Positions 2,368 to 58,210 of a stretch of 64,000 nt of DNA are shown here, one piece after another. The position numbers were made by a program, and so were the translations under genes. Location: positions 64,001 to 128,000 of the forward strand of contig CAVQJC010000017.1 in assembly GCA_963712745.1 (NCBI GenBank). Direction: 5' to 3'. Under the pieces are notes generated by a model. That model was given only the letters and a program-made list of their open reading frames with translations, had not been told where the DNA came from and made no database searches. Position 1 is the first letter of the stretch. Every line of letters begins with the position of its first letter. Origin of the DNA: an uncultured Chloroflexia bacterium (lineage in GTDB: Bacteria; Chloroflexota; Limnocylindria; Limnocylindrales; CSP1-4).

Positions 2368-3408
2368 TCAGGGGCCGGTCTCGCCAGGCACTGCCAGCTG
2401 GGCCAGGGTCCCGATGAGCCGGGCCGTGACGAAGGGGCTGCCACGCCGCGTGCTGCGCCGCTCGAATGCCGGCATATCAGGCGGGGGGAAGGACGCGCGC
2501 AGCGGCCACGACCCATCGGGTGATTGGGTCCTCGCGAGGCGCTCGATGGCCGGCTGCACGCGCTCGTCCGCGAGGCCCGGCATAGCCACCAGGTCGAGGA
2601 CCTCAAGGAGGTCCGTGTGCCAGTCGAGCGGGAAGGCGGGCTCGAGCCACCGTTCCGCCTGGGCACGTGTGCCGCCGAGGGACATGACCGTCCCGTCGCG
2701 GCGATACAGCAGTCGACGCTCGAGGAACACCTCGCGGACCGCGTCGAGCATCTCGGTGGCTCGCTGGTCGGCTGACCGCTCGAGCCAGCGGCGGAGAGCG
2801 TGGCCGACCTTGACCAGGCCGATGAGGCAGGTGGTACCGGCCATGCACCCGCCGTAGCGGGTACGCAGCCGCTCGTCCCACAGCACCGTCGCCTCATGCC
2901 GCCGTGACCGGCCTCCGGCCCGCACCTCCTGGTGGCGCAGGATCCACTCGACCTGGGGCTCGGCGAGGTCGGCACGTCCCCCGCGCAGGTACGTCTCCCC
3001 CGCGATGCCCACGTAGCAGCTGAGCACGCCGCCATCGCTGCCATCGACCGAGAAGACCCCCGCGCCGGTATGAGCTCGATCGGCAAGGAAGCCGGCACCG
3101 GCGCGCCAGCCATCATCGCCGTCGTCGATCCCGAGCTCAGCCAGCAACTTGACCACCCAGAGCGTCGGGAGGATGCGCGACCGGGCCTCGGGAGGCTGGC
3201 CCCAGCTGCCATCGGGACGCTGGCGTGCGAACGCTTCCTCGACGGTGGCCGAACCGACGACGCGCGCCCACGCGCTGGCGATGTCCTCGGGTCCGCCACC
3301 GTCGAGTCGCGCGACGAGGAGCGCGGTGCGTGGGTCGGGGTGCTCGCGCAGCCACGTGCGTGCGGCTTCGAGCCGTGGCCAGGTCATGCCTCCCATGTCC
3401 GGCATCAT
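2368..3408 (-). CDS. Prenyltransferase/squalene-oxidase repeat protein
   Basis: QW-like repeats RQRPDGSW and TQSPDGSW; FPLDWHTDLLEVL; start codon uncertain (3408 or 3387). Confidence 0.7.
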   Translation of the reverse strand: MMPDMGGMTWPRLEAARTWLREHPDPRTALLVARLDGGGPEDIASAWARVVGSATVEEAFARQRPDGSWGQPPEARSRILPTLWVVKLLAELGIDDGDDGWRAGAGFLADRAHTGAGVFSVDGSDGGVLSCYVGIAGETYLRGGRADLAEPQVEWILRHQEVRAGGRSRRHEATVLWDERLRTRYGGCMAGTTCLIGLVKVGHALRRWLERSADQRATEMLDAVREVFLERRLLYRRDGTVMSLGGTRAQAERWLEPAFPLDWHTDLLEVLDLVAMPGLADERVQPAIERLARTQSPDGSWPLRASFPPPDMPAFERRSTRRGSPFVTARLIGTLAQLAVPGETGP

Positions 3409-3467
3409 CGGTCCCCCCTGCAGCTCGCGTGACCGAGTTTCGCCGATATTGACCAGAATCGGGAATT

Positions 3468-3531
3468 CTCGGCCGCGTGCGTAACACGCTACGGGGTCCC
3501 CGGGCGCCCACGTCAGCGCCATGTGGGTACC
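3468..3531. repeat. Dispersed ~65-bp cos-like element, copy 1
   Basis: The 34 bp ccccgggcgcccacgtcagcgccatgtgggtacc (3498-3531) are identical to 22970-23003, with a similar ctcggccgcg..cacgct.cggggt flank; the cos-like reading is inference. Confidence 0.75.
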
Positions 3532-3676
3532 CTGGGTCAGCGCCCATTGCGAAGCCCAGGCCAGCGCCCGCGTCAGCGCCAGCCGGGTTGTCGACGAAAT
3601 CGGAAGGAACGGCTGGGCACTCTGCACCGTAGTGTATGAAGGCGCCCACCAAGGCGGCGCCACCAGCGGAGTCAGA

Positions 3677-4237
3677 GTGGACACCGACCTCGTCCGCAGT
3701 GCGATGCGGGGGGACGAGCGGGCCTTCACCGAGATCGTGAACAGCGTGGCCGACCGCTTCCTCGGCGTGGCCCACCGCATCCTGCGGGACGTCGCGCTGG
3801 CCGAAGACGCGGTCCAGCAGACCCTGCTCAGCGCATGGCGAGACCTGCCTGACCTTCGCGATCCGGCGAGCTTCGACGGCTGGGCCTACCGCATCCTGGT
3901 CCACGCCTGCTACATGGAGGCACGCAAGCGCAAGCGCTGGCATCCAGCGACGATCGTCCGGTCGATCGCGGAGCCGGCCGCCCCGGACCTCATCGGCGGC
4001 ATCATCGAACGGGAGCGATTGGAGCGGGCCTTCGAGCGTCTGTCGGTCGATCACCGCGCGGTGCTGGTCCTCACCTACTACCTGGACCTGCCATCCGAGC
4101 AGGTCGCCCAAGCCCTCGACGTCCCGGTCGGGACGGTCCACTCCCGGCTCCACCGAGCCCAGCAGGCGCTCCGTGGTGCCCTCGAGGCGGACGGGCGTGT
4201 GCTACCGGCAACACCCACGACACAGGCGATCGAATGA
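3677..4237 (+). CDS. ECF-family RNA polymerase sigma factor
   Basis: GDERAF, AEDAVQQT..AWRDL, FDGWAYRI, region 4 VPVGTVHSRLHRA; GGAG before GTG. Confidence 0.92.
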   Translation: MDTDLVRSAMRGDERAFTEIVNSVADRFLGVAHRILRDVALAEDAVQQTLLSAWRDLPDLRDPASFDGWAYRILVHACYMEARKRKRWHPATIVRSIAEPAAPDLIGGIIERERLERAFERLSVDHRAVLVLTYYLDLPSEQVAQALDVPVGTVHSRLHRAQQALRGALEADGRVLPATPTTQAIE

Positions 4238-5067
4238 ATGACCAGCACATGACCGACAAGGAGATGGACGCGGTGCTGCGGACGTGGACGCCTGACGCGC
4301 CCACCGGGCATCCCGACCGCAGCCGCGTCGTCGGCAACGTCGTTCGCCAGCTTCACTCGACACGCCGACGCCGACGCCGCTGGTGGCTGACCGTGGCGTT
4401 CCGAGGAATGGCCGGCGCCCCCAAGGACGCCGAGAGGCATCACGACCCAGCCAGTCCCGTCCCGGCCACGGGCGGCCACACCCCCACCGTCATCGGGAGG
4501 ACCCAGTCCATGCTCAGCCCAGTCAAGGCCATCACCGCTGGTGCTCTCGTCTTCGCCATCGGAGGCGTGATGCTCATCGCCCAGCCATTCGACCGACCGT
4601 CGGTCGTCCCCGGCGCTGCTACTGACGACTCGCCCGCCGCTCCGGTGGCCGTGACCGCCACCAGCTACGCGGGGGGCTGCCCGGGCGTCGAGACGACCGA
4701 GACCATCGGCATCATCGAGCGCACCACCGGTGGCTACTGCAACCCCACGTGGGACTGGAGCGATGACCGGCTCGACGGCAAGGTGACCTGGGCGTCGAAC
4801 AGCGACGTCTACACCGACGGAAGCGGCCTGACCATCGAGATGCTCGCCCTGAGCTTCGAGAACGACGAGGGTGCCTGGCGCATGCGCCCGCTGCCATTCC
4901 TCGGGTTTCCGGATGCCCTGGAGACCGGCCCCGACGTCTGGATCCTGGACGGTGAGAGCGCCTACGAGGGGCTCACCGCCGTCCTCGTGGTCGACGGCTA
5001 CACTCCCCACGGCTTCATCATCGACAGCGATCTGCCGCCCGTGCCGGATAACGCCTCTACGAAGTAG
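4234..5067 (+). CDS. Putative membrane-anchored anti-sigma factor
   Basis: ATGA overlap with the ECF gene; short cytoplasmic N-terminus, RRRRWW, one TM (AITAGALVFAIGGVMLIA) and an acidic extracellular domain; paralog at 57416. Confidence 0.7.
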   Translation: MNDQHMTDKEMDAVLRTWTPDAPTGHPDRSRVVGNVVRQLHSTRRRRRRWWLTVAFRGMAGAPKDAERHHDPASPVPATGGHTPTVIGRTQSMLSPVKAITAGALVFAIGGVMLIAQPFDRPSVVPGAATDDSPAAPVAVTATSYAGGCPGVETTETIGIIERTTGGYCNPTWDWSDDRLDGKVTWASNSDVYTDGSGLTIEMLALSFENDEGAWRMRPLPFLGFPDALETGPDVWILDGESAYEGLTAVLVVDGYTPHGFIIDSDLPPVPDNASTK

Positions 5068-5111
5068 CGCCTGATCGACCTTCGGGCCCCGCCCTGCCAC
5101 GGTCGACTGCG

Positions 5112-5137
5112 AGGCCCGTCCCGCGAGGGGCGGGCCT
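5112..5137 (+). terminator. Repeated GC hairpin AGGCCCGTCCC-N4-GGGGCGGGCCT, copy 1
   Basis: 11-bp stem with a G-U wobble and GCGA loop, 45 nt after a stop codon, followed by CTT. Confidence 0.65.
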
Positions 5138-5219
5138 CTTCCCTGCCTGACGTGATTCCGAGGAGGCTCGGCGCTCCACCGGGGCTCCACCGTAGACGAG
5201 CCACATGAGTTCCTTCGCC

Positions 5220-5501
5220 TCAGCGCCGCCGCTGGCTCAACCCCTTCCGCGCGTTGCAGCTCGAGCAGAGCACGCCCGGCCGAGCCGGCAGCGGCTCGCC
5301 ACCGAGGACGAGCGGCAGCGGATGGTCGGCCGTGGGCTCGCCGGGTCGCACCGGATGGGGCTCCCGATGCCAGCCAGGACAGGTCCAGCCCTCGCGCGCG
5401 ACATGAGCCTCGACCGTCCGCTTCGCCAGACGACGCCAAGCTCTCGTGCGTCGGATCGGATGGTCGGGTGTCCGCCGGAAGCGGTTGGCGAAGCCCGGCA
5501 C
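5220..5501 (-). CDS. Small HNH endonuclease, copy B (apparently intact, 93 aa)
   Basis: GTG start with GGAG 5 nt upstream; WRRLAKR..WTCPGW..ADHPLPLVLGG..LCSSCNARKG. Confidence 0.75.
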   Translation of the reverse strand: MPGFANRFRRTPDHPIRRTRAWRRLAKRTVEAHVAREGWTCPGWHREPHPVRPGEPTADHPLPLVLGGEPLPARPGVLCSSCNARKGLSQRRR

Positions 5502-48467: not shown

Positions 48468-48855
48468 CAGCGAGACGACGGGCCGTCGGCCTGCACAGTC
48501 GACCGGCCTGACGTGGGACTCGCCAGCCGGCCGGGTGCACCGACGGCCTCTGCGGCGACGATGCCCATGCCCCGATACTACTCCTCGCCAGACCTCGCTC
48601 GCACGTCTCCGCCGATGTCGTCCTGCGCCACCGGCTTGCCTACCGGAGGCGTCGATCGCCCCGCCCCCGGCCGGGCCAGGGGCGGGGATGCTGGTGTACG
48701 CGTGGCTGGCCGTCCGCGACATCCTGCTGGCGCCGGAGGTGGAGCCGCTGACCTGCGAAGCCCCGGCATGATCGACCAGCGCGCCGGTCCCCCGACTTGG
48801 GGCCGTCTGGACCTAGCGACTGCGCTCGTCGCCCTTGAGCCTGACGCTCGGGGCC

Positions 48856-51800
48856 ATGGTCGAAAGCATCCACGTCAACCTGCACACGCACACCTCGCAC
48901 AGCGACGGTGCGCTCACGCCCGGCGCGCTGGCCCAGCGTCTGGCCGATGCCGGCGTGCGCTACGCCTCGCTCTGCGACCACGACACGGTCGCGGGCTGGC
49001 CTGCGTTCCGGGACGCGTTGGATGCACACGACATCCCCGCCCTCCCCGGCATCGAGCTGACGACCGTCCACGGCGGACGGCTGCTCCACCTCGTGGCCTA
49101 CGGGTTCGACCCCGACCATCCCGAGCTCCGCTCGACGCTGGGCTCGATGCGCGAGCGCCGGAGCGCCCATGCGCACGGCCTCGAGGCATCGCTCCGCGCT
49201 GCCCACGATTACGCCGCGGCTGACCAGGCCGTCCTCAGTGCCGCTCCCGATGGCCAGCTCGAGGTCGGGGCTGCCATCGCCCTGCTCCATCGTGCCGGCG
49301 GCCACGCGTTTCTGGCACATCCACTGGTCTACGAGCGCGAGATCAGCCTGCTCGAGCCGCTGGTGCTGGAGCTCAAGGGACTGGGCCTCGACGGCATCGA
49401 GGCGGTGTACGACGAGTTCAGCCCGGACGAGCAGACGGCGCTGCGAGAGCTTGCCCACGAGCACGACCTGCTGGTCAGCGCCGGGACCGACTACCACGGG
49501 ATCAAGGGCCTGGGCAGCTCGGCGCTCGGCATCGACATGCCCGGCGAGGACTGGGATCGGTTCCGCGCGGCCATGTTCGATGGCCACGCCCTGACTTCGG
49601 GCCGGCACGCCTCGGCGTCGGCCTCCGCTACCGGCACCCCGGCGTCATCCCCCGCCGAGAGCGGCGCCGGTCCGGGGCACGTGAGCCGGCGGCCGTTCGT
49701 CCTGCGCGTGGTCCTGCCGGCGCTCGCCGCGCTGGCCCTCTTCCTGGTCGCGGTCTGGGGACTGCTGCTGCCGTCCTTCGAGCAGACGCTCGTCGATCGC
49801 AAGCGCGAGCTGATCCGCGAGCTCACCAACTCGGCCTGGAGCGTGCTGGCGGCCTACCACGCCGACGAACAGGCTGGGACGCTGACGCGCGAGGAGGCAC
49901 AGGCTGCGGCCGCCAGCGTGGTGTCCGAGCTGCGCTACGGCGAGGCAGGGCTCGACTACTTCTGGATCCAGGACACCACGCCCACGATGGTCCGCCATCC
50001 CTATCGATCCGACCTCGACGGTGAGGACCTCAGCGGCTTCAAGGACCCGCGCGGCGTGCCTATCTTCGTCGAGTTCGCCGAGCTGGTCGAAGCCGAGGAC
50101 GAGGGCTACGTCGACTACGTCTGGCAGTGGTTCGACGACCCCGAACGCCTCGAACCCAAGCAGTCGTACGTCAAGGGCTTCGAGCCCTGGGGCTGGATCA
50201 TCGGCACCGGGCTGTACGTGGACGATGTGCAGGCGGAGATCGATCGCATCGAACGCGACGTCATCTTCGCGGCCTTGGGCATCTCCGGGCTCATCGCGCT
50301 GCTGCTGCTGTTCGTGCTGCAGCAGAGCCTGCGCATCGAGCGTCGTCGCGAGGAGGGCGTGGAGCGGCTGCGCGCTTCGAACGCCCGCTACCAGGCCCTG
50401 GCTGAAGCCACCTCCGAGGGCACGCTGCTGGTCATCGACGGCCGACTCCGCTATGCCAACCCCACCCTCCTCGAGATGCTCGGCTACACCGCGCGGCAGC
50501 TGGAGTTCCTCGAGCTCGACGACGTCATGCCTCGTGGGCAGGGCAACGACGAGCTGTGGACGGTACTGGACACGGGTGGGCTCGAGTCGGAGCTCATGGG
50601 GGCGGCGCGCGAGGGCGTGCTCACGCGTTCCGACGGGGATCCAGTGGAATGCCTGCTGACGCTGGAGCCGGTCGAGTTCGGTGGCCGGGCCGGGAACATC
50701 CTGCTCGCTCGCGACATCACGGCCTCGGGGGGCGCTCCGCGTGAGATCACAGTGCTTGGTACGGCGGTCGGCGTGTTCCGGTCAGCGGTCGCCCGGCGCG
50801 CCGTGTTCGTCGAGCTCAGTCCGGCCGGACGCGAGCTGCTGGCCCTGGTCACGGCCGGGGAGGGAGGACAGCTGGCCCTGGCCGACTGTTTCGCCGACCC
50901 CGCCGAGTTCGGCCAGGTGTACCGCCGGCTGGTCGAGCTCGGAGAGGTGCGAGATCACGTCCTGACCGTCGACACCGCACGTGGAGCTCGCTCGGTCTTG
51001 CTATCGGCCGCGCTCCTGCGCGACGACGAGGGGGAACCTGCCTGGATCGACGGACTGCTCGTCGATGTCACCGCGGCGCGCGGGGAAGCGGCCGACCGCG
51101 AGGTCCAGCAGCTCCGCGCCTCGCTGCTGTTCCTGCACGAGACCATCGAGGACTTGGGACAGGAGCCGCTGGTGGTACCGATGGGCTCGAGCCTCGATGC
51201 CATGGCCGCCAGCATGACCGAGCGCGGGGCTACGGCCGCGCTGGTGGCGAGCGAGTCGGGCCCGGCCATCGGCATCGTCACCGACGCGGACATCCGTGCG
51301 CGCGTGGTGGCGGAGGGAGCCGACCCGCGGGCGCGCGTGGAGACCGTCATGACCGCGCCGCTCATCCGCGTGCCTTCCAGTGCGCCCGTGTACGACGCCC
51401 TGTCGCGCATGGAGCTGGCCGGTGTTCGTCACCTCGTGGTGGAGGATGCGACCGGGGCCATCGTGCGCGTCGTCGACAAGGACGCGCTCATCCGCTCGCC
51501 GCGGTACGCGCCGCTCGTGCTGCTCCGAGACATCGCCCGTGCCAGGGATGTCGAGGAGGTCGCCCGTCGCTGCGAGCGCACGGTCTCGGCCGCGGCCAGC
51601 CTCTCCCAAAGCAGCGCTCGGCCACGCCACGTGAACAGCATGCTGACCTCGGTCTTCGACGCGGCCACCGTGCGCCTGGTCGAGCTGGCCATCGACGCGC
51701 TCGGGCCCGCACCCGCGCCATTCGCCTTCGTCGCCTTCGGCAGCCAGGGCCGGGGAGAAGTGCACCTCTCCTCCGACCAGGACCACGGGCTCATCTACGG

Positions 51801-52542
51801 ACCCGCTGACGGAGACGACGAGGCTCAGGCCGGATACTTCCTGGGTCTTGGCGAGCGAGTGTCGGCCGGCCTGGCCGCGGCCGGCTACCCCTACTGTCGC
51901 GGAAGGGTCATGGCCTCTGAGGCGGCCTGGTGCCGGTCGTTGCCCGGCTGGATCGAGACCTACGACGCGTGGCTCCGTCAGGCCCAGCCCCAGGACATCA
52001 CCGACCTCTCGGTATTCCTCGACTTCCGCCTGGTGGTGGGCGATGCGGGGCTGGCGGGGGAGCTGCGCCGCCACGTGCATTCGACGCTGCCCGAACAGCG
52101 CGGAGTGCAGTACCTGCTGGCCCGCAACGCGCTCACCTTCCGTCCGCCGCTGCGCCTGCCGGGCAACATCTACCTCGGCGGTGCCTCCGAGTCGAGCGGA
52201 CGCTTCGAGCTCAAGGACGCGCTGCAACCGATCGTCGCCTTCGCGCGGGTCGCTGCCGAACGCCACCAGGTGGTCGCCACGCATACGCTCGAGCGCATCG
52301 CGGCCCTGGCCGAACGCGACCTGCTGCAGTCCGGCAGCCGGGAGGAGGTCACCGATGCGTACGACTTCCTCATGGGTCTCCGCCTGGAAGCACAGCTGGC
52401 CGATGTGCGCGCCGGGCGAGAGCCTGCGAGCGTGGTCGAGCTCGCCGGGCTGACCTCCATCCAGCGCGAGCTGTTGCGCCAGGCGTTCGGCGCCATCGGC
52501 GAGGTCCAGAAGACCGCCGAGCGAGAGTTCCCCGAGGCCTGA
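48856..52542 (+). CDS. PHP-TM-sCache-TM-PAS-PAS-CBS-DUF294 nucleotidyltransferase multidomain protein
   Basis: PHP: LHTHTSHSDG, DHD, GIE, AHP, GTDYHG; Cache: DYFWI..HP..KDP.G..YVKGFEPWGWIIGTG; CBS pair; NT: GSQGRGE..SSDQDHG, GRVMAS. Confidence 0.85.
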   Translation: MVESIHVNLHTHTSHSDGALTPGALAQRLADAGVRYASLCDHDTVAGWPAFRDALDAHDIPALPGIELTTVHGGRLLHLVAYGFDPDHPELRSTLGSMRERRSAHAHGLEASLRAAHDYAAADQAVLSAAPDGQLEVGAAIALLHRAGGHAFLAHPLVYEREISLLEPLVLELKGLGLDGIEAVYDEFSPDEQTALRELAHEHDLLVSAGTDYHGIKGLGSSALGIDMPGEDWDRFRAAMFDGHALTSGRHASASASATGTPASSPAESGAGPGHVSRRPFVLRVVLPALAALALFLVAVWGLLLPSFEQTLVDRKRELIRELTNSAWSVLAAYHADEQAGTLTREEAQAAAASVVSELRYGEAGLDYFWIQDTTPTMVRHPYRSDLDGEDLSGFKDPRGVPIFVEFAELVEAEDEGYVDYVWQWFDDPERLEPKQSYVKGFEPWGWIIGTGLYVDDVQAEIDRIERDVIFAALGISGLIALLLLFVLQQSLRIERRREEGVERLRASNARYQALAEATSEGTLLVIDGRLRYANPTLLEMLGYTARQLEFLELDDVMPRGQGNDELWTVLDTGGLESELMGAAREGVLTRSDGDPVECLLTLEPVEFGGRAGNILLARDITASGGAPREITVLGTAVGVFRSAVARRAVFVELSPAGRELLALVTAGEGGQLALADCFADPAEFGQVYRRLVELGEVRDHVLTVDTARGARSVLLSAALLRDDEGEPAWIDGLLVDVTAARGEAADREVQQLRASLLFLHETIEDLGQEPLVVPMGSSLDAMAASMTERGATAALVASESGPAIGIVTDADIRARVVAEGADPRARVETVMTAPLIRVPSSAPVYDALSRMELAGVRHLVVEDATGAIVRVVDKDALIRSPRYAPLVLLRDIARARDVEEVARRCERTVSAAASLSQSSARPRHVNSMLTSVFDAATVRLVELAIDALGPAPAPFAFVAFGSQGRGEVHLSSDQDHGLIYGPADGDDEAQAGYFLGLGERVSAGLAAAGYPYCRGRVMASEAAWCRSLPGWIETYDAWLRQAQPQDITDLSVFLDFRLVVGDAGLAGELRRHVHSTLPEQRGVQYLLARNALTFRPPLRLPGNIYLGGASESSGRFELKDALQPIVAFARVAAERHQVVATHTLERIAALAERDLLQSGSREEVTDAYDFLMGLRLEAQLADVRAGREPASVVELAGLTSIQRELLRQAFGAIGEVQKTAEREFPEA

Positions 52543-56759: not shown

Positions 56760-56855
56760 CGGTGATTCTCGCGCGAAGTTGGGGAATATCGACTAGAGCG
56801 CTTCCCCTTTAGGTGCAGAGCCGGGACAATCCCGGTTCAGACACGAGGGAGCGAC

Positions 56856-57419
56856 GTGGACGAGCAGCTCGTTCGCCTGGCGCAGGGTGGGGACCAGGAG
56901 GCCTTTCGGTCGCTGGTCGTCGCTAACCATGCGCGCCTGCTTCGTGTGGCCCAGGGCGTACTGCGCGACCCGCATGTCGCCGAGGACGCGGTGCAGCAGG
57001 CCTTCCTCGATATCTGGCGGGACCTCCGCCGCCTGCGCGACGCCGGCAAGTTCGAAGGGTGGAGCTACAAGCTCCTGCTTCGGGTCTGCTATGCCGAGGC
57101 CAGGCGCATGCCGCGGTGGGTGCCCGACAGTCAGATCCCGGCAGCCGCCCGGCCGCGTGTCGGCGACGTCTTGGGCGTCGTCGTCGACCGTGACCAGCTC
57201 TCCCGGGGCTTCCAGCAACTCTCGACCGACCATCGGGCGGTCATCGTCCTGCGCTACCTCATGGACCTGTCTCCGGAGCAGGTCGCGGACGCGCTCGACA
57301 TCCCGCGTAAGACCGTTTACTCCCGCCTCGGCCGAGCCATGGACGCGCTTCGTGCCGCGCTCGAAGCCGAAGACCGATCCGCGATGCCCGTGCCGGTCAG
57401 CCAGGAGCCCGCCTCATGA
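56856..57419 (+). CDS. ECF sigma factor (paralog of 3677)
   Basis: GDQEAF, AEDAVQQAF..WRDL, FEGWSY, DHRAVIVL.Y, KTVYSRL. Confidence 0.92.
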   Translation: MDEQLVRLAQGGDQEAFRSLVVANHARLLRVAQGVLRDPHVAEDAVQQAFLDIWRDLRRLRDAGKFEGWSYKLLLRVCYAEARRMPRWVPDSQIPAAARPRVGDVLGVVVDRDQLSRGFQQLSTDHRAVIVLRYLMDLSPEQVADALDIPRKTVYSRLGRAMDALRAALEAEDRSAMPVPVSQEPAS

Positions 57420-58210
57420 ACGACGAGCGCTTCCTCAAGGACTGGCTGCGGGACACCACCGATGAGCGTTCCGATGCTCACGCAGCCGCCGAACACATCG
57501 TCGCGCGGCTGCCCCGGACGCGGCAACGAAGCCGTTGGTGGCCGCTGCTGCCGAGGCGACGTCGCAGCCCCAGCGAAGACAGGACAACGAACCTCGAAGG
57601 GAGGACCCGACTCATGCTCAGCCCCACCAAGGCCATCGCCGCCGGCGCGCTGGTGTTCCTGACCGGTGGCCTGCTCCTGGTGGCAGCGCCCATCGGGACC
57701 GAACCCGCCGGAGTCCCGGGCGCCCAAGTTTCCGCGGACACGCCGCCTTCGCTGTTCCACGGCCGGGTGTTGCCCGCCTGGACCGAGGTGACACTCGAGT
57801 CGGCGGTCGCCGGCACGCGTGACGACGGCTCGACCTTCGAGTATGGGTCCGGGTGGGTGGGAAGCAGCCTGACGACCAACGACCCACGCATGGGCGGCCG
57901 GCTCGACTGGATGTGGAACGGTGACGAACCACCGGTAGCAGATCCGCCGGCCGAGCTGACGGGCGGCATCGGGACCGTCCTGGTGCGCGTCGCGAACGAC
58001 GGCGGAACGTGGACCGGTAGCACCACCTGGATGAGCCTGGATGACCCCGACTGGGAATCGCTCAGCGGGTGGCTTACCGGAGCCGGTGGCTACGAAGGCC
58101 TGATGGCCTACGTGGCGATGGACGCCAACGACTACGAGGTGATGGGGTACATCACGCCCTATGGCCCGCCACCGGTCCCGGAGGGCTTCCCTCGCGACAG
58201 CGAGACCTAG
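57416..58210 (+). CDS. Putative anti-sigma factor (paralog of 4234)
   Basis: ATGA overlap; RQRSRWW, GRTRLMLSPTKAIAAGALVF, DPRMGG, GYEGL. Confidence 0.72.
   Translation: MNDERFLKDWLRDTTDERSDAHAAAEHIVARLPRTRQRSRWWPLLPRRRRSPSEDRTTNLEGRTRLMLSPTKAIAAGALVFLTGGLLLVAAPIGTEPAGVPGAQVSADTPPSLFHGRVLPAWTEVTLESAVAGTRDDGSTFEYGSGWVGSSLTTNDPRMGGRLDWMWNGDEPPVADPPAELTGGIGTVLVRVANDGGTWTGSTTWMSLDDPDWESLSGWLTGAGGYEGLMAYVAMDANDYEVMGYITPYGPPPVPEGFPRDSET

Follow-up and report, generated by a model that had tools for sequence, protein, structure and literature searches.

Two ECF sigma/anti-sigma loci with an internal start-like site

Here we describe two loci in a 64,000-nucleotide (nt) stretch of DNA from an uncultured Chloroflexia bacterium (contig CAVQJC010000017.1, positions 64,001 to 128,000 of the forward strand; hereafter the window, numbered from its first nucleotide). 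At each locus a gene for an extracytoplasmic function (ECF) sigma factor with sigma-2 and sigma-4 domains is followed directly, in the same orientation, by a gene for an anti-sigma-like protein. Inside each anti-sigma-like gene a Shine-Dalgarno (SD)-like sequence stands at a working distance before an in-frame start codon, and it is this internal site, together with the shorter protein that it may specify, that concerns us here. The main elements are as follows:

3677..4237, plus strand: ECF sigma factor gene 1, probable GTG start at 3677 (Sigma70_r2/r4, sigma70-ECF superfamily)
4234..5067, plus strand: anti-sigma-like gene 1, long form of 277 amino acids (aa), its ATG overlapping the sigma stop codon (ATGA)
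4495..4500, plus strand: internal SD sequence 1, GGGAGG, codons of Gly88-Arg89
4510..5067, plus strand: predicted short form 1, 185 aa, if translation starts at the internal ATG (4510-4512)
56856..57419, plus strand: ECF sigma factor gene 2, GTG start with GAGGGAG upstream
57416..58210, plus strand: anti-sigma-like gene 2, long form of 264 aa, ATGA overlap with the sigma stop codon and GGAG at 57404-57407
57599..57604, plus strand: internal SD sequence 2, GGGAGG, codons of Gly62-Arg63
57614..58210, plus strand: predicted short form 2, 198 aa, if translation starts at the internal ATG (57614-57616)

The two anti-sigma-like proteins are paralogs with 29% identity, and tblastn found these two copies only within the window. 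In copy 1, GGGAGG at 4495-4500 is followed by the spacer acccagtcc (4501-4509) and by the ATG at 4510-4512 (Met93), in the frame of the open reading frame (ORF) 4234..5067; in copy 2, GGGAGG at 57599-57604 is followed by acccgactc (57605-57613) and the ATG at 57614-57616 (Met67), in the frame of ORF 57416..58210. A preliminary description of this DNA had given these coordinates, the 9-nt spacing and the in-frame position of both sites, all of which proved exact on re-reading. It had also reported that each internal Met codon opens a segment of the form MLSPxKAIxAGALVF...A(Q/A)P, as it does, and that AGG is uncommon here, which is borne out by its share of 11.6% of 976 arginine codons in 44 window ORFs (picked heuristically, some of them possibly spurious).

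The number of such sites in the window carries little weight. GGGAGG-N9-ATG occurs three times where 0.91 would be expected, a count that is not significant by itself because 8 of 100 shuffles reach 3. The third occurrence, at 52340, was set aside, its ATG lying out of frame within a 1235-aa ORF (48835..52542). On both strands the hexamer GGGAGG is strongly depleted, with 28 occurrences against 72.1 +/- 7.9 expected from dinucleotide shuffles (100/100 shuffles gave at least 28), as would fit either a codon bias or an avoidance of SD-like hexamers. Copy 1 also has, at 4562-4575, another in-frame GGAGG, 4 nt before an ATG and within the membrane helix (ATC GGA GGC GTG ATG); this looks incidental because the Gly-Gly is conserved in the family but its codons and the Met are not.

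Codon conservation at the internal site

A genome-contig scan with a 17-sequence subset of the protein alignment described below returned seven loci (L001-L007), all in metagenome-assembled genomes (MAGs) of Chloroflexota. The contig of L005 ends before the site, which places this locus outside the site comparison. Counting codons relative to the internal Met (position 0), and designating the two window genes W1 and W2, the sites read as follows:

W1 (copy 1, 4234..5067): GGG AGG, 9 nt, ATG
W2 (copy 2, 57416..58210): GGG AGG, 9 nt, ATG
L001: GGG AGG, 9 nt, ATG
L002: GGG AGG, 9 nt, ATG
L004: GGG AGG, 9 nt, ATG
L003: GCG AGG ACC CGA CTC ATG
L006 (distant relative, 495 aa): GCA AGG GGG TTC ACG ATG
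L007 (distant relative, 449 aa): GCG TCG AGA TCC ACG GCG, without Met and without an SD-like sequence

All six family genes have AGG at -4 (7/7 with L006), with the same spacing to the ATG in all six, and the glycine at -5, where present, is always GGG (5/5). Outside the site, the same six genes use AGG for 11 of 114 arginine codons and GGG for 21 of 123 glycine codons. The preliminary description had named ordinary GGC/CGC codons in the paralogs as the observation that would count against it; what the paralogs have is AGG and, for glycine, GGG, at a peak of synonymous constraint. From -6 to +11, 126 of 168 same-residue pairs share their codon (0.75, against 0.43 expected from codon usage). 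The corresponding figures are 249 of 510 (0.49 against 0.49 expected) for the remainder of the gene and 56 of 115 (0.48 expected) for the remainder of the helix. The SD sequence and start codon are in this way kept across homologs with reduced synonymous variation, and the signal is the strongest in the gene, the top 12 of 191 twelve-codon windows all beginning between -15 and -2. At the primary start codon sharing is 0.75 against 0.64 expected, a weaker signal than at the internal site. The minor codons at the site end in A (GAA, CAA or ACA at -6, CGA at -2 and CCA at +3), as expected if this were an unstructured initiation region.

Three of the related loci show irregularities of their own. 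The L002 homolog (2501-3228) is broken: tblastn places further parts of its barrel at 3009-3128 and 3160-3228, in different frames, and either an assembly error or a pseudogene could account for this. In L003 the ORF (2501-3121) is short, at 207 aa. Downstream of the 495-aa ORF of L006, which ends near 3986, a barrel-like segment at 4242-4496 resembles residues 151-236 of copy 2 and may represent another gene or a frame problem.

Residue conservation in the protein family

A word-indexed search found 28 relatives, and in the alignment of 29 sequences Arg63, Met67, Ser69 and Pro70 are among the invariant columns, next to a conserved N-terminus, MNDERFLKDWL...RQRSRWWP. A profile search against 1.84 billion representatives yielded 2395 proteins at E <= 0.001, 245 of them at E <= 1e-30. 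For the 134 family proteins with sequence upstream of the Met, the residues ahead of it are distributed as follows:

Position -5 (n=134): G 107, R 19, W 6, V 1, S 1
Position -4 (n=134): R 131, K 1, S 1, G 1
Position -3 (n=134): T 128, N 2, S 2, I 2

The residue at -5 is thus G, R or W in 132 of 134 proteins, a set that coincides exactly with the amino acids having NGG codons; alanine, the usual replacement for glycine, occurs in 0/134 and serine in 1/134. On a tree of 145 sequences, built on the region from the Met onward only, position -5 changed at least 21 times, and at most two of these changes leave the set of G, R and W. Such a pattern would make sense only if selection acts on the nucleotides N-GG-AGG. 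The Met itself is invariant in the 29-sequence alignment and in 157/157 motif matches; 14 sequences were missed by the Met-motif pattern, and among those inspected P0002 has the Met while P0130 and P0162 have other architectures. The linker ahead of the site is variable among relatives, ranging from 60 to 91 residues.

Gene callers place the start of the protein at this Met in 22 of the 150 best family representatives, and the contigs of Met-starting proteins range from 826 nt to 1.2 Mb. We considered a separate, stand-alone family of short genes and rejected it, as Met-starting proteins are scattered among long forms: on the 145-sequence tree the short label, carried by 23 rows, changes 23 times, and these rows include P0063 and P0121, which the short-form pattern wrongly classed as short (it also missed P0088).

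The site also marks a boundary at which the N-terminal part of the protein differs between relatives. In P0136, P0150 and P0156 a different N-terminal module joins the same W-R-[TI]-x-x-M or G-R-T-x-x-M junction, and the SD-ATG thus travels with the helix-barrel module. In the other direction, the MNDER..RQRSRWWP module is also found on the 449- and 495-aa proteins of L007 and L006, which differ downstream of the helix. The second N-terminal module, MDDKxAFERQVAxxV..GP..PVD, is unrelated to the first and is seen on the helix-barrel in P0130 as well as in the three proteins just named, which points to a shuffling of modules between putative anti-sigma factors.

Properties of the initiation region

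In all six genes, opening the mRNA from -16 to +13 is cheaper than the gene background (quantiles 0.18, 0.00, 0.33, 0.06, 0.03 and 0.09), and the cost is comparable to that of the primary start regions. No conserved RNA structure was found between -60 and +50, where the consensus fold, with 8 pairs at -5.4 kcal/mol, includes 0 covarying pairs. Pairing with the anti-SD sequence reaches -10.0 kcal/mol in five of the six genes, which corresponds to ranks 1, 7, 7, 13 and 14 of 1391 9-mers. The internal SD of copy 1 (4495..4500) holds rank 1 of 1391 and is the top anti-SD match of its operon; it is stronger than the sequence ahead of the primary start of the same gene, which has only AGG upstream. 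Three likely true gene starts of the window (17545, 29397 and 32549 minus strand) have the same 9-nt gap after GGAGG.

Operon context and transcription

The overlap of sigma stop and anti-sigma start as ATGA occurs in both window copies and in L002-L007, with TGATG in its place in L001; the two-gene extent of both window operons is taken from ORF lists. Both sigma genes have Pfam matches to Sigma70_r2 and Sigma70_r4 and score above cutoff for the NCBIfam sigma70-ECF superfamily, and sigma gene 2 has 83-88% identity with the sigma genes of L001-L005. The start of sigma gene 1 was set by homology to copy 2 and by a GGAG 5 nt upstream, the mechanical ORF beginning at 3521. The C-terminal residues of the sigma factor (..RQEPA/..QEPAS) encode the SD sequence CAGGAG[CG] of the coupled anti-sigma start, in copy 2 (57404-57407) and in L001-L005, and the sigma C-terminus may therefore be nucleotide-constrained as well.

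Upstream of the sigma genes lie two promoter-like motifs, identified with a pattern from an alignment of 9 upstream regions:

3606..3631, plus strand: ECF-type promoter-like motif of sigma gene 1 (GGAAC-N16-CCGTA), a pattern match and putative promoter
56783..56810, plus strand: ECF-type promoter-like motif of sigma gene 2 (GGAAT-N17-CCCCTTT), a pattern match and putative promoter

The motif is present upstream of the sigma gene in 5/6 loci (at about 1868-1895 in L002-L004), which suggests that these operons are autoregulated. In copy 2 and L001-L005 the motif is followed by a small leader hairpin, CCGGGA-caa-TCCCGG (window 56821-56835). From the sigma 3' end to the internal ATG the ECF-type motif is absent in 6/6 genes, and in the interval 3400-5400 neither a sigma-70-like promoter nor an intrinsic terminator was found. 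A separate transcript for the short form, from a promoter inside the anti-sigma gene, was rejected on the same absence, and the short form would therefore come from the same autoregulated mRNA as the long form. Rfam returned 0 families and ARAGORN 0 tRNAs in the window.

Predicted long and short proteins

The architecture of the proteins was read from family conservation and from an AlphaFold2 model of copy 2, with a mean predicted local distance difference test score (pLDDT) of 79:

57422..57535, plus strand: N-terminal residues 3-40 of copy 2, predicted sigma-binding part, with helices at 3-14 and 21-31 and then RQRSRWWP (from the model and the predicted complex)
4510..4581, plus strand: signal-peptide-like/transmembrane segment 1, MLSPVKAITAGALVFAIGGVMLIA, then QP (family consensus; helix in the model of the paralog)
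57614..57685, plus strand: signal-peptide-like/transmembrane segment 2, MLSPTKAIAAGALVFLTGGLLLVA, then AP (family consensus; model helix 70-89)
57749..58156, plus strand: predicted extracytoplasmic beta-barrel domain, residues 112-247 (model, pLDDT > 90)

Between the sigma-binding part and the helix (70-89) the model has a disordered, Arg-rich linker (33-66). The model helix and barrel, the conserved hydrophobic core and the Arg-rich N-terminal side together point to a single transmembrane helix with an extracytoplasmic domain beyond it. When the sigma factor was modelled with residues 1-66, the predicted complex scored 0.70, and the best of 3 controls reached 0.00; the mark applied to this score is reached by 116 of 157 solved complexes and by 2 of 215 mismatched pairs and is rough here, where our own alignments were used. 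Runs share at least 77% of their contacts, the partner has a pLDDT of at least 60, and the contacts are predicted to join anti-sigma residues 3-40 with sigma residues 10-59 and 111-166. This outcome may reflect likeness to solved ECF sigma/anti-sigma pairs. On the predicted structures it is plausible that the long form is an anti-sigma factor, and the short form would lack every sigma-contacting part. The label "anti-sigma-like" used in the preliminary description is in keeping with this N-terminus predicted to bind sigma, and with the ATGA overlap with an ECF sigma gene.

Neither anti-sigma-like protein has a family match in Pfam or NCBIfam, and the zinc-binding anti-sigma motif (HxxxCxxC) is absent, no His or Cys being conserved within residues 1-66 of the 29-sequence alignment. 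The ESM Atlas returned only unnamed Chloroflexota clusters with scores of 0.75-0.78, too low for a useful lead. Searched against PDB folds, the barrel had 0 matches at E <= 0.001, and the hits at E about 0.01 were generic barrels only.

The short form would begin with the consensus M-[FL]-S-P-V-K-A-I-T-A-G-A-L-V-F-A-x-G-G-x-x-L-I-A-Q-P-F, which has the n-region and h-region of a signal peptide. Residues 1-8 carry a net charge of +1 in 134 of 157 sequences and 0 in the other 23, and the hydrophobic core (about residues 7-23) is conserved within a helix that is unusually conserved throughout. Ala24 stands directly before Q/A-P in 131 of 157 sequences, with V-P-G-A conserved about 10 residues further on. 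The start of the short form appears signal-peptide-like, and its cleavage is uncertain.

Interpretation of the internal site

Selection on an internal ribosome-binding site and its start codon is well supported by the codon and residue comparisons above. We consider it probable that what is selected is an in-frame internal start in ECF anti-sigma genes of Chloroflexota, from which each gene would yield two proteins, one a long anti-sigma factor and the other short and sensor-only. Each locus would then be a two-gene operon in which an ECF sigma gene is followed by a single-pass membrane anti-sigma gene, coupled to it by the ATGA overlap, with a second in-frame initiation region, (N)GGAGG, 9 nt and ATG, at the boundary between the sigma-binding part with its linker and the membrane helix. 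Initiation at the first ATG would give the long form, comprising the sigma-binding N-terminus, the disordered Arg-rich linker, the helix and the extracytoplasmic beta-barrel. The internal ATG, if it initiates in vivo, would give a short form of 185 or 198 aa with the 24-residue signal-peptide-like helix and the barrel only; because nothing but the barrel follows that helix, the short form presumably cannot hold sigma. It would insert with the N-terminus on the inside, and would then either remain anchored in the membrane or be released by cleavage after ..LIA (before QP). It could modulate signalling by competing for ligand, protease or the long form, or it could be an effector induced by its own sigma factor.

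The preliminary description had proposed a long membrane-anchored anti-sigma factor and a short exported form from each gene. Of that interpretation, selection on the internal ribosome-binding site and start is the part that the comparisons uphold; the two-isoform output, the export and the role of the short form stay at the level of prediction. It had offered as an alternative that the anti-sigma gene arose by fusion onto a gene for an exported protein. As an account of origin, fusion gains some support from the different N-terminal modules at the same junction and is compatible with an internal start that functions today.

Several observations weigh against an internal start. The SD of L003 is weaker (GCGAGG, -6.2 kcal/mol, rank 83 of 1391), and SD-like sites of equal strength occur elsewhere in these operons, because of which pairing strength by itself is not diagnostic; the anti-SD sequence used was a generic one, the 3' end of the organism's own 16S rRNA lying outside the window. 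The DNA comparison covers six motif genes and two distant relatives, all from Chloroflexota MAGs or the window, and for some 130 further family proteins the codons are inferred from residues. L007 has Ala in place of the Met, and P0135, at least, carries Thr there. A long member is also present in 2 of the 10 clusters of Met-starting proteins examined, and for 19 of the 21 true short forms compared the nearest relative is a long form; the 22 Met-starting proteins would show only that the site looks start-like to gene callers, or that contigs were cut. Cleavage, too, has a point against it, in that its putative site has Leu or Val at -3, which the -3/-1 rule allows but which is not typical, and the hydrophobic core extends over about 17 residues.

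Of the other explanations, a programmed elongation pause ahead of the membrane helix fares best, and we think it unlikely. The SD-like hexamer, or the minor codons GGG-AGG-..-CGA-..-CCA, would slow ribosomes already translating the long form, so that the N-terminal domain could bind sigma, or the nascent chain be targeted, in the time gained; no short form would be made, and the Met would be kept for reasons of protein function. A cluster of minor codons does stand with an SD-like sequence directly ahead of the helix, and the model suggests that a ribosome at the site would already have about residues 1-35 of the sigma-binding part outside its exit tunnel. SD-like pausing and pauses in membrane-protein mRNAs have reportedly been proposed, by Li and colleagues in 2012 and Fluman and colleagues in 2014. 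The SD-pause effect has since been disputed. A pause leaves unexplained why the ATG is invariant and always 9 nt away, why there is little mRNA structure around it and why codons on both sides end in A; AGA, CGA or CGT would serve equally for a rare-codon pause, yet AGG is found in 6/6; and with a linker of variable length the timing relative to the N-terminal domain would not be fixed.

That the site is instead bound by a trans-acting factor (a small RNA, an RNA-binding protein or an RNase), or is a regulatory RNA structure and not a start site, we regard as highly unlikely. Such a role would fit the extent of the synonymous constraint, which at about 50 nt (-18 to +30) exceeds what an SD and a start codon strictly require, but constraint of this extent is typical of initiation regions too. 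The absence of covarying pairs and of any Rfam match in the window speaks against a structured element, and the substitutions that are seen preserve GGAGG and ATG specifically.

The exchange of modules described above could also mean that N-terminal modules were recombined onto the helix-barrel at this point, so that the conserved site reflects recent exchange, or is the undecayed relic of a ribosome-binding site with no present function. Both the second N-terminal module at the same junction (P0136, P0150 and P0156) and the MNDER..RQRSRWWP module on proteins that differ beyond the helix (L006 and L007) speak for this explanation. Synonymous sites elsewhere in the gene are fully saturated (0.49 against 0.49), however, and an unselected relic would have decayed; because of this saturation we take the site to be maintained now. 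In addition, at least 19 independent changes at -5 all retained NGG, which argues for continuing selection, and we give a site of no present function very little credence.

A purely protein-level juxtamembrane motif, G-R-T-x-x-M-[LF]-S-P, recognised for example by a protease or insertase and with incidental codons, would suit the invariance of R, M, S and P in the 29-sequence alignment and the unusually conserved helix, but is hardly tenable: the codon tallies refute it, since it explains neither AGG in 6/6 genes and GGG for 5/5 glycines, against usages of about 10% and 17%, nor changes at -5 from G to R or W only, where Ala or Ser (0/134 and 1/134) would be expected.

Relation to known systems

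RseA, RsiW and RsiV are single-pass transmembrane ECF anti-sigma factors under regulated proteolysis, and for RsiV signal peptidase has been reported as the site-1 protease. The proteins described here resemble them in that the gene lies directly after an ECF sigma gene and is coupled to it, and in the predicted order of an N-terminal cytoplasmic sigma-binding part, one helix with a helix-breaking Gly-Gly and an extracytoplasmic sensor domain; the putative signal-peptidase-like site after the helix may be a further likeness to RsiV. They differ from these anti-sigma factors in having no Pfam or NCBIfam anti-sigma domain, a sigma-binding part of about 40 residues with no His/Cys zinc motif, and a sensor that is predicted to be an 8- to 9-strand barrel with weak similarity to PDB entries. 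CnrY is a short class II anti-sigma factor without a large extracytoplasmic domain of its own; the very short cytoplasmic peptide predicted here to contact both sigma-2 and sigma-4 recalls it in size and predicted contacts. In its general fold the predicted domain resembles small 8-stranded barrel proteins, examples being DUF3224 (2q03/2ooj), the pyocyanin demethylase PodA (5k21), allene oxide cyclase and the Diels-Alderase AbyU. Against these PDB barrels the domain has target template modelling scores (TM-scores) of 0.4-0.6 over about 145-165 columns, and because the E-values are 0.01-0.1 and the identities 9-18%, such matches do not establish its homology or function.

To our knowledge, no anti-sigma gene has been described as having a conserved internal start. 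No report of internal initiation in anti-sigma genes was found in the literature, as judged from titles and the beginnings of abstracts. In-frame internal starts with a conserved SD, start codon and synonymous constraint are known from E. coli, an example being ArcB-C (Meydan et al., bioRxiv 10.1101/520783), and the term "anti-sigma" occurs nowhere in that paper. ArcB-C offers a close parallel to the window genes: in both cases a signalling gene contains, where one domain gives way to the next, an SD-like sequence and a start codon, both of which homologs conserve, and the C-terminal product may have a separate role. Whereas ArcB-C is a cytosolic phosphotransfer domain shown by western blot, the product predicted here would consist of the membrane portion of an anti-sigma factor together with its extracytoplasmic one. 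The family would be a new variant that joins in-frame internal initiation to the ECF anti-sigma factors, each a known kind.

Significance for the family

On a practical level, gene callers are inconsistent in this family of 2395 profile relatives, choosing sometimes the long start and sometimes the short one. Internal starts of this type can be recognised from protein alignments alone, where the allowed residues G, R or W spell out a nucleotide motif.

A more ambitious proposal, which we put forward with considerable doubt, is that the operon forms a feedback loop with no other regulon: the long form would sense a small molecule via its barrel and release sigma, sigma would drive its own two-gene operon from the ECF-type promoter, and the exported short barrel would be the main output, binding or destroying the inducer. 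In a weaker version the short form, without a sigma-binding part, may set the threshold of the switch, competing against the long form for ligand, protease or partners.

Few bacterial signalling devices are as common as ECF sigma/anti-sigma pairs, in which the anti-sigma gene is taken to specify one protein. If the internal start is used, each of these genes would have two products with opposite relations to sigma, one its holder and the other a sensor-only copy, and the short form, as decoy, threshold setter or induced effector, would add a layer of stoichiometric control that standard annotation hides.

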